Source of the DNA: a virus
Taxonomy: Duplodnaviria > Heunggongvirae > Uroviricota > Caudoviricetes
IMG/VR virus record: IMGVR_UViG_2737471869_000025
Direction: 5' to 3' (one strand)
DNA length: 32,991 bases
The notes below the pieces were generated by a model that was not told the origin of the DNA, made no database searches, and saw only the letters and a list, made by a program, of their open reading frames with translations. Positions 1 to 32,991 of this stretch are shown in pieces (position 1 is the stretch's first letter; every line of letters starts with the position of its first letter). Both the position numbers and the translations under genes were made by a program.

Positions 1-333
1 ATGGGGGAAGGTGAGGTGAATAAAATAGCTGCTATATCATTAATTAGTGTTTTTCTTATGTCTGGTTGTGCTGTGCATAATGATGAGACAAGTATCTGTA
101 AATTTGGCCTTGCATATAAAAGTAATATTCAGCGTAAACTCGATAACCAATACTACACCGAAGCCGAAGCTTCTTTAGCCAGGGGCAGAATATCTGGTGC
201 AGAAAATATAGTAAAAAATGATGCAGCCCATTTCTGTGTTACTCAGGGCAAAAAAATGCAGATAGTTGACCTGAAGACAGAAGGTGCAGGATTACATGGC
301 GTCGCTCGTCTGACATTCAAATGTGGAGAGTGA
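1..333 (+). CDS. Hypothetical host lipoprotein (left flank, outside the prophage)
   Basis: ORF beginning with ATG at window position 1; hydrophobic stretch followed by lipobox-like LMSGC; lies outside attL. Identity not recognised. Confidence 0.45.
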   Translation: MGEGEVNKIAAISLISVFLMSGCAVHNDETSICKFGLAYKSNIQRKLDNQYYTEAEASLARGRISGAENIVKNDAAHFCVTQGKKMQIVDLKTEGAGLHGVARLTFKCGE

Positions 334-395
334 GAATATTTTTTGGTAAGCGTCAAATATGCGCGTTCTGGCTGTGCGTAGCCGGAACCTGTGGG

Positions 396-428
396 AGCAC
401 GATGCCGATAAGTGAAAGGCATCGTGCT
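396..428. repeat. Perfect 11-bp inverted repeat (hairpin) in the left flank
   Basis: agcacgatgcc (396..406), 11-nt loop, ggcatcgtgct (418..428); no following T-run, so not a clear intrinsic terminator. Confidence 0.4.
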
Positions 429-490
429 ATGAAGGAGGATTCTATCGATGTGGTCAATGGAAGACGGTTACCAGAGATAGGGCTTATGCA

Positions 491-518
491 TAAAAAATAA
501 GCCCGTGTAAGGGAGATT
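491..518. repeat. attL: attL core, 28-bp direct repeat of the prophage
   Basis: taaaaaataagcccgtgtaagggagatt is identical at 491..518 and 31458..31485; matches the P2 attachment core as recalled; integrase gene immediately inside. Confidence 0.85.
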
Positions 519-3382: not shown

Positions 3383-3684
3383 TGTCCTGTTCTCATTCAG
3401 TTGTATTACTGAATAACGCCTTAAAAATCGCCGTTATGAAAAATGGTGATTTGTCTCTTATTCAACTTTGTCTTGATAAAGAAAAACGCGACATAACTGA
3501 ATCTGTTATCGCGATTTATCAGAATGAATTAAACCTCCTGTCTGATGTGGTCAATTTACTTGTTAAACGCGCTGTATTCCACAAGCAAATTTCATCCGTG
3601 GATGAGCTGACAAAATTAACGACAGAAATCGCCAGCTATTGCGCTGATGAATTCAAGAAACTGAACGATAAAAGGAGCTGGTAA
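3379..3684 (+). CDS. Early hypothetical protein (P2 orf81-like)
   Basis: 101-aa ORF, start overlaps the stop of the preceding gene (translational coupling). Confidence 0.6.
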
Positions 3685-24035: not shown

Positions 24036-24420
24036 CATCCGGCGCGGTGCTGGTATCTGTTGCCGTCACCGCGTCAGTGTAATCCAGCACGGCGTTAAGT
24101 CGGGTTGTTTCTGCCTGCGTCAACTTCCGTCCGGCCTGTAATTTCAGCTGAATCAGACTAATGGAAGCCATTGCTGCATCAATCAGTGACTGGCGCTGTG
24201 CTTCTGCTGCATCTACTGCTGCGCCGTGCTGTGCCTCGGTATCTGTCACCCATTTCTCACCATTCCATTCATCGTATGGCGTTAACGGGGCGATAGTGGT
24301 TGTATTTTCAGGATAATCACCCGGAGCTGTGATTTCTTTCGATTCTCCTGTTTCGGTGCTATAGACGATTTCACCGCGATGATCTGGCACATATTCCCAT
24401 GAATTTAAATCTACAGAGCG
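24007..24420 (-). pseudogene. Inverted, 5'-truncated second tail fiber assembly gene (Tfa' remnant)
   Basis: Minus-strand ORF 24007..24531 has Tfa-like sequence only in its C-terminal ~135 aa (WEYVPDHRGEIVY...LDYTDAVTATDTSTAPDVIWPELP); the first ~37 codons are antisense of the invertase remnant. Confidence 0.6.
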
Positions 24421-24753: not shown

Positions 24754-25944
24754 ATGAGTGACTATCATCACGGCGTGCAGGTGCTGGAGATTAACGACGG
24801 CACCCGCGTCATTTCCACTGTATCCACGGCCATTGTCGGCATGGTCTGCACGGCCAGCGATGCGGATGCGGAAACCTTCCCCATCAATAAACCGGTGCTG
24901 ATTACCAATGTGCAGAGCGCAATTGCAAAGGCTGGTAAAAAAGGCACGCTGGCGGCATCGTTGCAGGCCATCGCCGACCAGTCAAAACCGGTCACCGTTG
25001 TCGTGCGTGTGGAAGACGGCACCGGCGACGACGAGGAAACGAAACTCGCGCAGACCGTTTCCAATATCATCGGCACCACCGACGAAAACGGTCAGTACAC
25101 CGGACTGAAAGCCCTGCTGGCGGCGGAGTCGGTAACCGGTGTTAAACCGCGTATTCTCGGCGTGCCGGGACTGGACACCAAAGAGGTGGCTGTTGCACTG
25201 GCATCAGTCTGTCAGAAGCTGCGCGCTTTCGGGTATATCAGCGCATGGGGCTGTAAAACCATTTCCGAGGTGAAAGCCTACCGTCAGAATTTCAGCCAGC
25301 GTGAGCTGATGGTCATCTGGCCGGATTTCCTCGCATGGGATACGGTTGCCAGTACCACCGCCACCGCGTATGCCACCGCTCGTGCGCTGGGTCTGCGCGC
25401 TAAAATCGACCAGGAGCAGGGCTGGCATAAAACGCTGTCCAATGTCGGGGTGAACGGTGTTACCGGCATCAGCGCCTCTGTATTCTGGGATTTGCAGGAG
25501 TCCGGCACCGATGCTGACCTGCTGAACGAGGCAGGTGTCACTACGCTGATTCGCCGCGACGGTTTCCGCTTCTGGGGGAACCGTACCTGCTCTGATGACC
25601 CGCTGTTCCTCTTTGAAAACTACACCCGCACCGCGCAGGTGCTGGCCGACACGATGGCTGAGGCGCACATGTGGGCGGTGGACAAGCCCATCACCGCAAC
25701 GCTGATTCGCGACATCGTTGACGGCATCAATGCCAAATTCCGTGAGCTGAAAACAAACGGCTATATCGTGGATGCGACCTGCTGGTTCAGCGAAGAATCC
25801 AACGATGCGGAAACCCTCAAGGCCGGAAAACTGTATATCGACTATGACTATACCCCGGTGCCTCCTCTCGAAAACCTGACCCTGCGCCAGCGTATTACTG
25901 ATAAATACCTGGCAAATCTGGTCACCTCGGTTAACAGCAATTAA
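24754..25944 (+). CDS. FI: Tail sheath protein
   Basis: 396 aa, matches P2 gpFI as recalled. Confidence 0.95.
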   Translation: MSDYHHGVQVLEINDGTRVISTVSTAIVGMVCTASDADAETFPINKPVLITNVQSAIAKAGKKGTLAASLQAIADQSKPVTVVVRVEDGTGDDEETKLAQTVSNIIGTTDENGQYTGLKALLAAESVTGVKPRILGVPGLDTKEVAVALASVCQKLRAFGYISAWGCKTISEVKAYRQNFSQRELMVIWPDFLAWDTVASTTATAYATARALGLRAKIDQEQGWHKTLSNVGVNGVTGISASVFWDLQESGTDADLLNEAGVTTLIRRDGFRFWGNRTCSDDPLFLFENYTRTAQVLADTMAEAHMWAVDKPITATLIRDIVDGINAKFRELKTNGYIVDATCWFSEESNDAETLKAGKLYIDYDYTPVPPLENLTLRQRITDKYLANLVTSVNSN

Positions 25945-26531: not shown

Positions 26532-26807
26532 ATGAACAAAGAAAATGTGATTACCCTGGACAATCCGGTCAAGCGTGGTGAGCAGGTTATCGAACAGGTC
26601 ACGCTGATGAAACCTAATGCCGGGACGCTGCGCGGTGTCAGTCTGGCTGCGGTCGCAAACTCCGAAGTCGATGCACTGATTAAAGTGCTGCCGCGCATGA
26701 CGGCACCGATGCTGACCGAGCAGGAGGTCGCCGCACTGGAACTGCCTGACCTTGTGGCGCTGGCCGGTAAGGTGGTCGGTTTTTTGTCGCCGAACTCGGT
26801 GCAGTGA
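26532..26807 (+). CDS. E: Tail assembly chaperone E
   Basis: 91 aa, matches P2 gpE as recalled; contains the T6G slippery site near its 3' end. Confidence 0.9.
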   Translation: MNKENVITLDNPVKRGEQVIEQVTLMKPNAGTLRGVSLAAVANSEVDALIKVLPRMTAPMLTEQEVAALELPDLVALAGKVVGFLSPNSVQ

Positions 26808-29413: not shown

Positions 29414-29893
29414 ATGATGCTCGCGTTAGGTATGTTTGTTTTTATGCGCCAGACGCTGCCACACCAGACCATGCAGCGTGAATCAGATTATCGCTGGCCG
29501 TCAAATTCCCGTATCGGCAAACGGGATGCCTTTCAATTTCTCGGTGTGGGTGAGGAAAACATCACGCTTGCCGGTGTGCTTTATCCCGAACTGACCGGCG
29601 GAAAGCTGACGATGACCACGCTCAGGCTGATGGCTGAGGAAGGCCGGGCGTGGCCGTTGCTGGATGGCACTGGCATGATTTACGGCATGTATGTCATCAG
29701 CAAGGTGAGTGAAACAGGGAGTATTTTCTTTGCAGACGGCACACCCCGGAAAATTGATTTTACGCTGTCGCTCACCCGCGTTGATGAATCACTGGCCGCG
29801 CTTTATGGCGATATCGGTAAACAGGCGGAATCGCTCATCGGTAAGGCTGGCAGTATGGCGACTAAATTCACGGGTATGACGGGGGCGGGATAA
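29414..29893 (+). CDS. U: Tail protein U
   Basis: 159 aa, matches P2 gpU as recalled. Confidence 0.93.
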   Translation: MMLALGMFVFMRQTLPHQTMQRESDYRWPSNSRIGKRDAFQFLGVGEENITLAGVLYPELTGGKLTMTTLRLMAEEGRAWPLLDGTGMIYGMYVISKVSETGSIFFADGTPRKIDFTLSLTRVDESLAALYGDIGKQAESLIGKAGSMATKFTGMTGAG

Positions 29894-31056
29894 TGCTGGA
29901 TGCACTGACATTTGATGCAGGCAGTACGCTGACGCCGGATTACATGCTGATGCTCGACAGCAGGGATATTACCGGCAATATCAGCGACCGTCTGATGAGC
30001 ATGACCCTGACGGATAACCGGGGCTTTGAGGCTGACCAGCTTGATATTGAACTGAACGATGCCGACGGGCAGGTCGGACTACCGATTCGTGGCGCTGTCC
30101 TGACGGTGTATATCGGCTGGAAAGGTTTTGCCCTGGTATGCAAAGGGAAATTCACCGTTGATGAGGTTGAACACCGGGGCGCGCCGGATGTGGTCACCAT
30201 CCGCGCCCGGAGTGCAGATTTTCGTGGCACGCTCAATTCCCGCCGGGAAGGCTCCTGGCATGACACCACGCTCGGTGCGATTGTTGAGGCGATTGCCTCC
30301 CGTAACAGGCTGGAAGCCAGTGTCGCTCCGTCACTGGCCGGAATTAAAATCCCGCACATCGACCAGTCGCAGGAGTCCGATGCGAAATTCCTGACCCGTC
30401 TTGCTGAACGCAACGGCGGTGAGGTGTCGGTAAAAATGGGAAAACTGCTGTTTCTCAAAGCGGGGCAGGGGGTGACGGCCAGCGGTAAAAAAATCCCGCA
30501 GATTACCATCACCCGCAGCGACGGCGACCGTCATCATTTTGCGATTGCTGACCGTGGAGCCTACACAGGCGTAACGGCAAAGTGGTTACACACCAAAGAC
30601 CCGAAGCCACAAAAGCAGAAGATAAAACTGAAACGCAAAAAGAAAGAGAAACACCTGCGCGCACTGGAGCACCCGAAAGCGAAACCGGTCACGCAGAAGA
30701 AAGCGCCAAAAGTACCGGAGGCGCGCGAAGGTGAATACATGGCCGGTGAGGCTGACAATGTTTTTGCCCTGACCACGGTATATGCCACGAAAGCGCAGGC
30801 CATGCGCGCCGCTCAGGCGAAGTGGGATAAGCTGCAACGGGGCGTTGCGGAGTTCTCCATCAGCCTGGCTACCGGTCGTGCAGATATTTACACGGAAACA
30901 CCGGTCAAAGTGTCAGGCTTTAAGCGCGTCATAGACGAGCAGGACTGGACAATCACTAAGGTGACACATTTTCTGAATAATAGCGGCTTCACGACGTCCC
31001 TGGAGCTTGAGGTCAGGCTTTCTGATGTGGAGTACGAAACAGAAGATGACGAGTGA
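29893..31056 (+). CDS. D: Tail protein D (late control D family)
   Basis: 387 aa, matches P2 gpD as recalled. Confidence 0.93.
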   Translation: MLDALTFDAGSTLTPDYMLMLDSRDITGNISDRLMSMTLTDNRGFEADQLDIELNDADGQVGLPIRGAVLTVYIGWKGFALVCKGKFTVDEVEHRGAPDVVTIRARSADFRGTLNSRREGSWHDTTLGAIVEAIASRNRLEASVAPSLAGIKIPHIDQSQESDAKFLTRLAERNGGEVSVKMGKLLFLKAGQGVTASGKKIPQITITRSDGDRHHFAIADRGAYTGVTAKWLHTKDPKPQKQKIKLKRKKKEKHLRALEHPKAKPVTQKKAPKVPEAREGEYMAGEADNVFALTTVYATKAQAMRAAQAKWDKLQRGVAEFSISLATGRADIYTETPVKVSGFKRVIDEQDWTITKVTHFLNNSGFTTSLELEVRLSDVEYETEDDE

Positions 31057-31137: not shown

Positions 31138-31356
31138 ATGTTTCATTGTCCTTTATGCCAGCATGCCGCACATGCGCGTACAAGCCGCTATATCACTGAC
31201 ACGACAAAAGAGCGTTATCACCAGTGTCAGAACGTGAATTGCAGTGCCACGTTCATCACTTATGAGTCGGTACAGCGATACATCGTGAAGCCGGGAGAAG
31301 TCCACGCCGTCAGGCCGCACCCGTTGCTGTCAGGGCAGCAAATTATGTGGATGTAA
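31138..31356 (+). CDS. ogr: Late gene transcriptional activator Ogr (zinc finger)
   Basis: 72 aa from ATG 31138 (MFHCPLCQHAAHARTSRYITDTTKERYHQCQNVNCSATF); the ORF-track start at 31075 is an upstream extension. Confidence 0.92.
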   Translation: MFHCPLCQHAAHARTSRYITDTTKERYHQCQNVNCSATFITYESVQRYIVKPGEVHAVRPHPLLSGQQIMWM

Positions 31357-31367
31357 TTACAAACAGA

Positions 31368-31394
31368 AAGCCCCTCAGTCGAGGGGCTTTTTTT
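31368..31394 (+). terminator. Rho-independent terminator downstream of ogr
   Basis: GC-rich stem aagcccctc / gaggggctt with 4-nt loop, followed by a T-run. Confidence 0.8.
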
Positions 31395-31457
31395 GTCGAT
31401 GTGGTCAATGTGTGGACGTGGCCAGAAATAAATCCTTTTATTTCAATTTGTTGTACG

Positions 31458-31485
31458 TAAAAAATAAGCCCGTGTAAGGGAGATT
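31458..31485. repeat. attR: attR core, 28-bp direct repeat; also the 3' terminator end of cyaR
   Basis: Identical to 491..518; continues directly into the cyaR body. Confidence 0.85.
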
Positions 31486-31545
31486 ACACAGGCTAAGGAG
31501 GTGGTTCCTGGTACAGCTAGCATTTTATGGGTTATGTTTTTCAGC
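31459..31545 (-). ncRNA. cyaR: CyaR (RyeE) Hfq-binding small RNA
   Basis: Reverse complement gctgaaaaacataacccataaaatgctagctgtaccaggaaccacctccttagcctgtgtaatctcccttacacgggcttatttttt matches CyaR as recalled, including terminator hairpin and U-tail; lies between yegQ and the prophage as in E. coli. Confidence 0.85.
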
Positions 31546-31600
31546 GAAACGGATGATAACCTTAATAAATGCAGCTGTATGTGATCGGTTTCTAAGAATT
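31546..31600 (-). promoter_or_regulatory. cyaR promoter with class II CRP site
   Basis: On the minus strand, -10 TATCAT (31553..31558) and a CRP-like site TGTGA-N6-TCTAA (31580..31595) centred about 42 bp upstream of the sRNA 5' end. Confidence 0.6.
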
Positions 31601-31629: not shown

Positions 31630-32991
31630 TCACTTACCGTGTGGGTTACGCGTGGTTTCCCCGGAGAAATTACGCATCAGCAGAGCGTAATTGAGCTCAA
31701 GATCCTGCGGGACCGGGAGCCACACAGTATAACCATCGCCTGGTGCGACCGGCATCGCTTCACCTTTGGCGTTTTCCATGTGCTCAAGGGTAAAGTTAAT
31801 GTTGCCTTGCGGCGTCATCAGCTCAAGGCTGTCGCCAACGGAGAATTTATTTTTCACCGCTACCGCCGCGAGGTCCCCCTTGCGCTCACCGGTAAACTCA
31901 CCAACAAACTGCTGGCGGTCAGAAACTGAATAACCGTATTCGTAGTTCTGATAATCGTCGTGAGTATGACGACGCAGGAAACCTTCGGTATAGCCACGAT
32001 GCGCCAGACCTTCCAGAGTTTCCAGCAGGCTGGTATCGAACGGTTTGCCCGCAGCGGCGTCATCGATAGCTTTACGGTAAACCTGTGCGGTGCGTGCGCA
32101 ATAGTAGAAAGATTTAGTACGGCCTTCGATTTTCAGCGAATGCACGCCCATTTTGGTCAGGCGTTCTACATGGGCGATGGCGCGCAGATCTTTCGAGTTC
32201 ATGATGTAAGTGCCGTGCTCATCTTCAAACGCGGTCATATACTCGCCCGGACGCTGGGTTTCTTCGATCATAAACACTTTGTCGGTTGGCGCGCCGATAC
32301 CCAGCGTCGGCTCAACATTTTGCACCGGAATCGGCTCGTACTTGTGTACGATGTTGCCAACGTCATCTTCTTTCCCTTCCTGGACGTTGTACTCCCAGCG
32401 GCAGGCGTTGGTGCAGGTACCCTGGTTCGGATCGCGCTTGTTGATATAGCCAGAGAGCAGGCAGCGACCGGAGTAGGCCATGCACAGTGCGCCGTGAACG
32501 AAGATCTCGATCTCCATATCCGGCACCTGATTGCGGATCTCTTCAATCTCTTCCAGCGACAGCTCGCGAGAGAGGATCACGCGGGTCAGGCCCATTTGCT
32601 GCCAGAATTTCACCGTCGCCCAGTTTACGGCGTTAGCCTGCACCGAGAGGTGGATCGGCATTTCAGGGAAGTGCTCACGCACCAGCATAATCAGCCCTGG
32701 ATCGGACATAATCAGCGCATCCGGCCCCATTTCCACCACCGGTTTCAGGTCACGGATAAAGGTTTTCAGCTTGGCGTTGTGCGGTGCAATGTTGACCACG
32801 ACATAAAACTTTTTCCCCAGCGCGTGGGCTTCATTGATGCCGAGCTGAAGATTTTCGTGGTTGAATTCGTTGTTGCGCACACGCAGGGAGTAACGCGGCT
32901 GGCCCGCATAAACAGCATCTGCGCCATAAGCGAAAGCGTAACGCATATTTTTCAGCGTTCCCGCCGGGGAAAGGAGTTCCGGTTTAAACAT
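31630..32991 (-). CDS. yegQ: Peptidase U32-family protein YegQ (TrhP)
   Basis: 453 aa, full length; matches E. coli YegQ as recalled; start codon is the last three bases of the window. Confidence 0.9.
   Translation of the reverse strand: MFKPELLSPAGTLKNMRYAFAYGADAVYAGQPRYSLRVRNNEFNHENLQLGINEAHALGKKFYVVVNIAPHNAKLKTFIRDLKPVVEMGPDALIMSDPGLIMLVREHFPEMPIHLSVQANAVNWATVKFWQQMGLTRVILSRELSLEEIEEIRNQVPDMEIEIFVHGALCMAYSGRCLLSGYINKRDPNQGTCTNACRWEYNVQEGKEDDVGNIVHKYEPIPVQNVEPTLGIGAPTDKVFMIEETQRPGEYMTAFEDEHGTYIMNSKDLRAIAHVERLTKMGVHSLKIEGRTKSFYYCARTAQVYRKAIDDAAAGKPFDTSLLETLEGLAHRGYTEGFLRRHTHDDYQNYEYGYSVSDRQQFVGEFTGERKGDLAAVAVKNKFSVGDSLELMTPQGNINFTLEHMENAKGEAMPVAPGDGYTVWLPVPQDLELNYALLMRNFSGETTRNPHGK

Follow-up and report, generated by a model that had tools for sequence, protein, structure and literature searches.

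A 15-nt match between the Escherichia coli locI attB flank and the P2 integrase P-arm site: a possible relic, shared across the species, of an ancient P2-type attR arm

P2-type prophages in E. coli are found at a classical site beside cyaR, and the present locus raises the question of whether the bacterial DNA bordering such a prophage on its left holds the trace of an older phage. The window, meaning the whole stretch of 32,991 nucleotides that was analysed, contained in order yegR, a 158-bp spacer, attL, a P2-like prophage, attR, cyaR and yegQ, and this arrangement is that of the classical P2 locI site. The left bacterial flank was formed by yegR (1-333, + strand), a small lipoprotein-like gene recognized as an ORF and annotated as yegR at the same position in K-12, O157:H7 and B-type genomes. 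The spacer between yegR and the core (334-491) corresponded to the canonical B arm, the left bacterial arm of the P2 locI attB. It was followed by the attL copy of the 27-bp P2 core, AAAAAATAAGCCCGTGTAAGGGAGATT (492-518), which was identical to the annotated P2 attP core. The integrase gene of the prophage (598-1611, - strand), an ORF supported by the P2 int annotation, carried inside its 3' end two Int repeats of the P' arm, TGTGGACACT (607-616 and 618-627), which were located by a direct-repeat search and from the P2 P' arm annotation. At the other end of the prophage lay the D gene (29893-31056) and ogr (31138-31356, + strand), the late-gene activator and final prophage gene, whose ORF matched P2 ogr. 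Beyond ogr we found its Rho-independent terminator, a GC stem followed by a T-run (31367-31394, + strand), for which a homologous feature is annotated in P2. Next came the Int P-arm binding site TCGATGTGGTCAATGTGTGGACGTGGCC (31396-31423, + strand; homologous to the P2 protein_bind feature 24293-24320) and the P-arm IHF binding region (31427-31460, + strand; homologous to the P2 feature 24324-24357). The attR copy of the 27-bp core (31459-31485) is also part of the cyaR 3' terminator. The CyaR (RyeE) sRNA gene (31462-31547, - strand) was identified with Rfam RF00112 (100.7 bits, E 3e-19), and the right bacterial flank was formed by yegQ (31630-32991, - strand), an ORF annotated as yegQ in matching genomes. 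The prophage was a complete Peduovirus, with approximately 97% identity to phages 10W and P24C9 over approximately 74% of the queried part. The 3' end of cyaR is a documented P2 insertion site, and the P2-type insertions listed at "cyaR RNA" comprise Wphi2 in E. coli W, "ogr-D'" in K-12 and P2*B in REL606 (PMC3032704).

A first-pass annotation of the window had pointed out a 15-mer shared by the left flank and the phage arm next to ogr. The search of the window confirmed TCGATGTGGTCAATG exactly at 445-459 (flank copy) and 31396-31410 (phage copy), both on the + strand and 46 and 62 bp to the left of their respective cores, as that annotation had stated. The two cores (492-518 and 31459-31485) shared one more identical base on the left. 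No further copy of the 15-mer was present in the window with up to 2 mismatches. A third, 12-nt partial copy, GATGTGGTCAAT, occurred at 3544-3555 in the prophage early region and was at chance level, with 74 such 12-mer pairs in the window. Another exact direct repeat, CGGCACCGATGCTGACC, was observed at 25503-25519 and 26701-26717 in the tail-gene region; this repeat has no relation to the att sites and is consistent with chance, approximately 0.6 repeats of at least 15 nt being expected per window.

The same annotation had regarded a chance 15-bp match in a 33-kb window as unlikely, and this argument was wrong. Approximately 0.57 exact direct 15-mer repeats are expected per window, and 46% of simulated 33-kb windows contained at least one. 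Pure coincidence could thus be proposed on the grounds that roughly one exact 15-mer repeat is expected per two 33-kb windows, that an unrelated repeat of at least 16 nt is present here, and that the surroundings of the 15-mer align unconvincingly. We nevertheless consider coincidence improbable, since each copy lies less than 65 bp to the left of its core and both have the same orientation. None of 3000 simulations restricted to the 160 nt to the left of each core, read in the same orientation, produced a common substring of 15 nt. The arithmetic chance of such an arm-restricted match was approximately 2e-5 (160 x 160 / 4^15), and the estimate was still below 1e-3 with other arms and orientations allowed for. 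In addition, the matched sequence is a known protein-binding site. These results supported the conclusion that the shared 15-mer is not due to chance and is most economically explained as phage-derived.

In the P2 reference record (AF063097), the Int "P arm" binding site at 24293-24320 reads TCGATGTGGTCAATGTGTGGACGTGACC and is followed by the IHF site, the attP core, the Cox sites and the P' arm. The 15-mer was exactly the first 15 nt of this annotated site, and the phage copy in the window occupied the corresponding first 15 nt of the Int P-arm site of the prophage. It contained the first arm-type repeat, TGTGGTCA, which fits the arm-type repeat consensus tgTGGaCa (PMC3448106). When compared with the P arm of P2 attP (AF063097, 24293-24357), the flank 15-mer was identical to the start of the footprint and shared its side of the core and its orientation. 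It differed in that only one of the two arm repeats was intact, in that it lay 16 bp closer to the core, and in that neither an IHF site nor an upstream ogr or ogr terminator accompanied it. P2-type phages with unrelated cores and hosts carried the arm module (G)ATGTGGTCAATGTGTGGAC or variants of it: the two-repeat module reads TCGATGTGGACGCTATGTGGACA in WPhi and fiAA91-ss, AATGTGGTCGATATGTGGACA in Klebsiella Kp4845-1 and AGATGTGGTCAATGTGTGGACA in Yersinia vB_YenM_42.18. The P' arm of the prophage was built from the same motif, with TGTGGACACT occurring twice in 607-627. Since the module is found in phages with other cores and hosts, and again in the P' arm, the motif belongs to the phage lineage. 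Judged from these comparisons, it does not appear to be borrowed from the E. coli host flank.

The homology between phage and host att sites is classically explained in part by the capture of host DNA. By this precedent, the P arm of P2 could have been captured from the bacterial flank through aberrant excision, which would make the phage copy the derived one. We regard this direction as very unlikely. The occurrence of the arm module in phages of other cores and genera suggests that TGTGGTCAATG is ancestral among P arms, the motif is repeated in the P' arm without a counterpart in the cyaR-side flank, and the flank was absent outside Escherichia (Kluyvera and Enterobacter compared). We therefore infer that the sequence passed from phage to chromosome.

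The likeness of the flank to a P arm was largely confined to these 15 nt. In the alignment of flank and phage arm, by which the first-pass annotation had meant its reading to be judged, local, global and ungapped-extension comparisons gave nothing robust outside the core and the 15-mer. Aligned globally, the remaining 32 nt of flank and 48 nt of P arm scored no better than shuffled sequences (p 0.09-0.15), and with the flank variant common in other lineages the value was p 0.24. The 50 nt to the left of the two copies were unrelated (p 0.39). Ungapped extension gave p values from 0.017 to 1.0, depending on which phage and host variants were paired. The best feature past the 15-mer was a GT.ACCAGA.ATA block, which kept the register of the P2 reference arm, and 460-491 (+ strand), the part of the flank that leads to the core, resembled a P arm marginally at most. 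The components of a functional P arm were likewise incomplete in the flank. Of the two direct repeats approximately 11 bp apart, the first (TGTGGTCA) was intact, and the position of the second, which read GAAGACGG in the flank as against TGTGGACG, was degenerate. No IHF site was found between the repeats and the core, where the flank was 16 bp shorter, and the flank was not preceded by ogr and a Rho-independent terminator. A distant blastn of 334-491 against 50,697 phage records returned only records that included host flank. Of the 118 hits from an IMG/VR scan for a flank-type arm, two were chance matches within an unrelated gene and all others represented host flank at attL. A flank-type arm after ogr, as would be expected of a potential donor, was seen neither in the phage records nor in the IMG/VR contigs.

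The distribution of the flank among E. coli genomes indicated how the 15-mer should be read. Of 5426 complete E. coli genomes, 5366 contained the sequence at 334-491, and the K-12 and BL21-type copies matched it with 100% identity. In two genomes with an empty attB, O157:H7 and a BL21 derivative, yegR was followed without interruption by the 158 bp, the core, cyaR and yegQ, and the 15-mer was already in place 46 bp from the core. Site states were assigned from junction-spanning queries, by which 99% of the 5426 genomes were classified. The site was empty in 4208 genomes (contiguous junction query), carried a P2-type attL in 817, where the junction was annotated 'site-specific integrase', and carried a K-12-type junction remnant in 356. 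The same left flank was found in all three states. The 15-mer was kept in the most divergent E. coli lineage sampled, and Shigella flexneri had a 1-nt variant. These results demonstrated that 334-491 is the canonical left flank of the E. coli locI attB. The 15-mer is a fixed part of that flank rather than something left behind in the strain of the window, and it says nothing about that strain's own history.

The first-pass annotation had also interpreted the flank as a decayed remnant of an earlier P2-like prophage, as at ogrK/yegZ in K-12. In K-12, the identical 158 bp are followed by a truncated core (ending in AAGCCCGTGTA and continuing as GCAGAG), D', ogrK, the P arm and an intact core, so the ogrK/D' remnant lies to the right of the truncated attL core. 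The P arm of the remnant has its own second copy of the 15-mer. The cryptic remnant (ogrK, yegZ/D') occupies the same chromosomal site at cyaR (PMC3032704) and shows that deletion can leave a P arm and core beside cyaR. Unlike the flank, it comprises approximately 640 bp of phage DNA in a good state of preservation, is restricted to 356 of 5426 genomes, and lies to the right of the truncated core, whereas the 15-mer flank lies to the left of it and is near-universal. In the window, the attL core was intact and was followed by int and the full prophage, and the K-12 junction (GTGTA joined to GCAGAG) was absent from 334-518. The K-12 remnant is a separate event and not the equivalent of the left flank.

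The idea of an older P2-like arm at attB was consequently upheld in part. The shared 15-mer, its identity with the start of the Int P-arm site, the common side and orientation, and the similar distance from the core all stood; the attribution to a particular strain did not. A decayed arm left in the strain of the window by an earlier P2-like prophage would account for a 15-mer at a comparable offset from the core, and K-12 shows that such remnants occur at the cyaR site. This explanation was effectively refuted by the flank itself, which was 100% identical to the flanks of empty-site and K-12 genomes and was shared by 5366 of the 5426 genomes. Moreover, the K-12 remnant falls outside 334-491, to the right of the truncated attL core, and 334-491 contained no alignable arm, ogr or D sequence.

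Several further junctions were observed at this site. E. coli ECGI0523 (L010) had a yegR flank only approximately 88% identical to that of the window, yet it carried a K-12-type truncated-core/D' junction; the occurrence of this junction in a divergent lineage therefore indicates that the ogr-D' remnant is either old or spread by recombination. In one IMG/VR contig (L092), the core was truncated exactly as in K-12 (ending in GCCCGTGTA) approximately 60-70 nt downstream of the 15-mer (compare L001:2660-2690) and was joined to DNA without similarity to the prophage of the window. The recurrent breakpoint inside the core might correspond to the Int cleavage/overlap region, or it might reflect a different element using a shorter core. 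In P2-like prophages at the same site (IMG/VR L056, L108 and 4 others), the int-side arm diverged right after GTGTAAGGG (CGTTT...), and the shared core was shorter than 27 bp.

A perfect 15-mer beside noise is unlikely under uniform neutral decay (heterogeneity p about 0.0014). This unevenness, an exact half-site match amid scrambled neighbours, would be accounted for if the flank copy were a functional bacterial-side arm-type site for Int, able to alter integration or excision, whose origin may still be that of a relic. The retention of the 15-mer in all E. coli lineages sampled, save for the 1-nt change in Shigella, would also agree with a working site. We consider this unlikely for the following reasons. 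Conservation within E. coli needs no selection, as approximately 2.4 variable columns were expected in the 15-mer and 1 was seen in the lineage alignment, a difference which was not significant. The repeats of arm sites act in pairs, and the flank has only a degenerate second repeat. The core is identical in Kluyvera and Enterobacter, which have no such site, and at least Enterobacter gained an insertion there. The host also has no obvious reason to keep a phage-binding site, and no present function of the flank 15-mer is indicated. There is a small chance that P2 integrase would bind the bacterial-side half-site as an extra Int contact in attB or in the locI attL, biasing integration or excision. 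If this were so, part of the site preference of P2 would lie outside the 27-bp core, and continued binding of Int to the half-site would bear on how P2 selects its preferred site and exits from it.

The interval between yegS and cyaR in other genera provided a further comparison. The genome collection was scanned with a strict cyaR pattern, which gave 6 loci. Outside Escherichia, in Kluyvera and Enterobacter, the core and cyaR were identical and the left flank was unrelated. In Kluyvera, yegS begins 78 nt from the identical core. In E. coli, approximately 880 bp of partly AT-rich DNA (yegR and the spacer) lie between yegS and the core. The GC content was 38-39% in yegR and its upstream region compared with 50-54% in the neighbours; for yegR itself it was 0.39, and for yegS and yegQ 0.50-0.54. 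The AT-rich yegR was largely confined to Escherichia, and its homologues carried PF27694. Enterobacter hormaechei CP170191.1 (L006) had approximately 1.9 kb between two copies of the core (native coordinates 499-525 and 2403-2425), in which two ORFs of 321 and 199 aa were present and an integrase was absent, and its left core lay 78 nt from yegS, as in Kluyvera. This segment is a clear insertion at the core, and it has the look of a remnant without integrase that occupies the same hotspot in a different genus. It shares with the E. coli arrangement the additional DNA that separates yegS from the cyaR core at this hotspot. It differs in having kept both cores and no arm-type site, whereas E. 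coli has one core and one half-site. No second, degenerate core that could represent an old attL was found near yegS in E. coli (p 0.5-0.8).

We also considered whether the 15-mer or the hairpin described below had travelled with a yegR cassette, and this was rejected, as both were absent where yegR homologues sit at other loci; any linkage of yegR to the relic is therefore tentative. Some E. coli lineages kept approximately 175 bp after yegR (L020:3320-3500; L029, L051 and L135) that resembled the second gene of a two-gene yegR cassette. This cassette was intact at other loci in other taxa (L017:3322-3654 and L023:490-816), beside nitroreductase and Ivy. In one Enterobacter genome, a yegR homologue occurred without the partner gene and had IS elements on either side.

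Two other features of the left flank were analysed. The perfect 11-bp hairpin at 396-428 (+ strand), which the first-pass annotation had reported near the 15-mer, was correct, with arms at 396-406 and 418-428 that were complementary at 11 of 11 positions and an 11-nt loop. Its predicted free energy was -27.3 kcal/mol (z -4.7). Among 10 aligned lineage sequences the loop varied, and the stems differed only by one C-to-T substitution, after which a G-T pair remains. The hairpin lacked the marks of an intrinsic terminator: 396-428 had no T-run on either strand, and the scan gave no terminator-like site. Its interpretation as a relic of the ogr terminator was rejected for want of both sequence similarity and a T-run. 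It is conserved in E. coli, probably represents a structure of the yegR 3' end, and has no demonstrable phage link. In addition, 10-codon ORFs in the same frame started inside both copies of the 15-mer (448-480, encoding MWSMEDGYQR and a stop; 31399-31431, encoding MWSMCGRGQK and a stop), and the flank ORF had AAGGAGG upstream, 9 nt from the ATG. A conserved peptide was rejected, as the substitutions among lineages were mostly nonsynonymous and the Shigella sequence was frameshifted, and the strong AAGGAGG motif was confined to K-12-type flanks.

Collectively, the most likely reading is that the left-flank 15-mer, shared across the species, is what remains of an ancient P2-type attR arm, and we assign this reading a probability of approximately one half. 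A P2-type element would have integrated at the 3' end of cyaR before E. coli diversified. It would then have been lost through deletions that left the attR junction, namely the arm site, the core and cyaR, and perhaps also cargo in the form of the AT-rich yegR segment. The arm would since have eroded except for the 15-nt block, and the eroded attR would have become the attB used by present-day P2 phages, including the intact prophage of the window. This history of integration and then deletion is consistent with the situation in K-12, where deletion remnants keeping the P arm and core do form at the cyaR site, and with the insert of E. hormaechei, which shows the kind of intermediate that we propose. 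Against it, the similarity past the 15-mer was not robust, the second repeat and the IHF site were unrecognisable, the decay was uneven (p about 0.0014), and neither a second core relic nor a donor phage arm was found.

The finding is a minor addition to a well-known classical site, and it carries a caution that a repeat near att sites should not be read as strain-specific prophage history. It also suggests that the "bacterial" attB of P2 at cyaR may be the worn end of an older integrated element, as at other hotspots.
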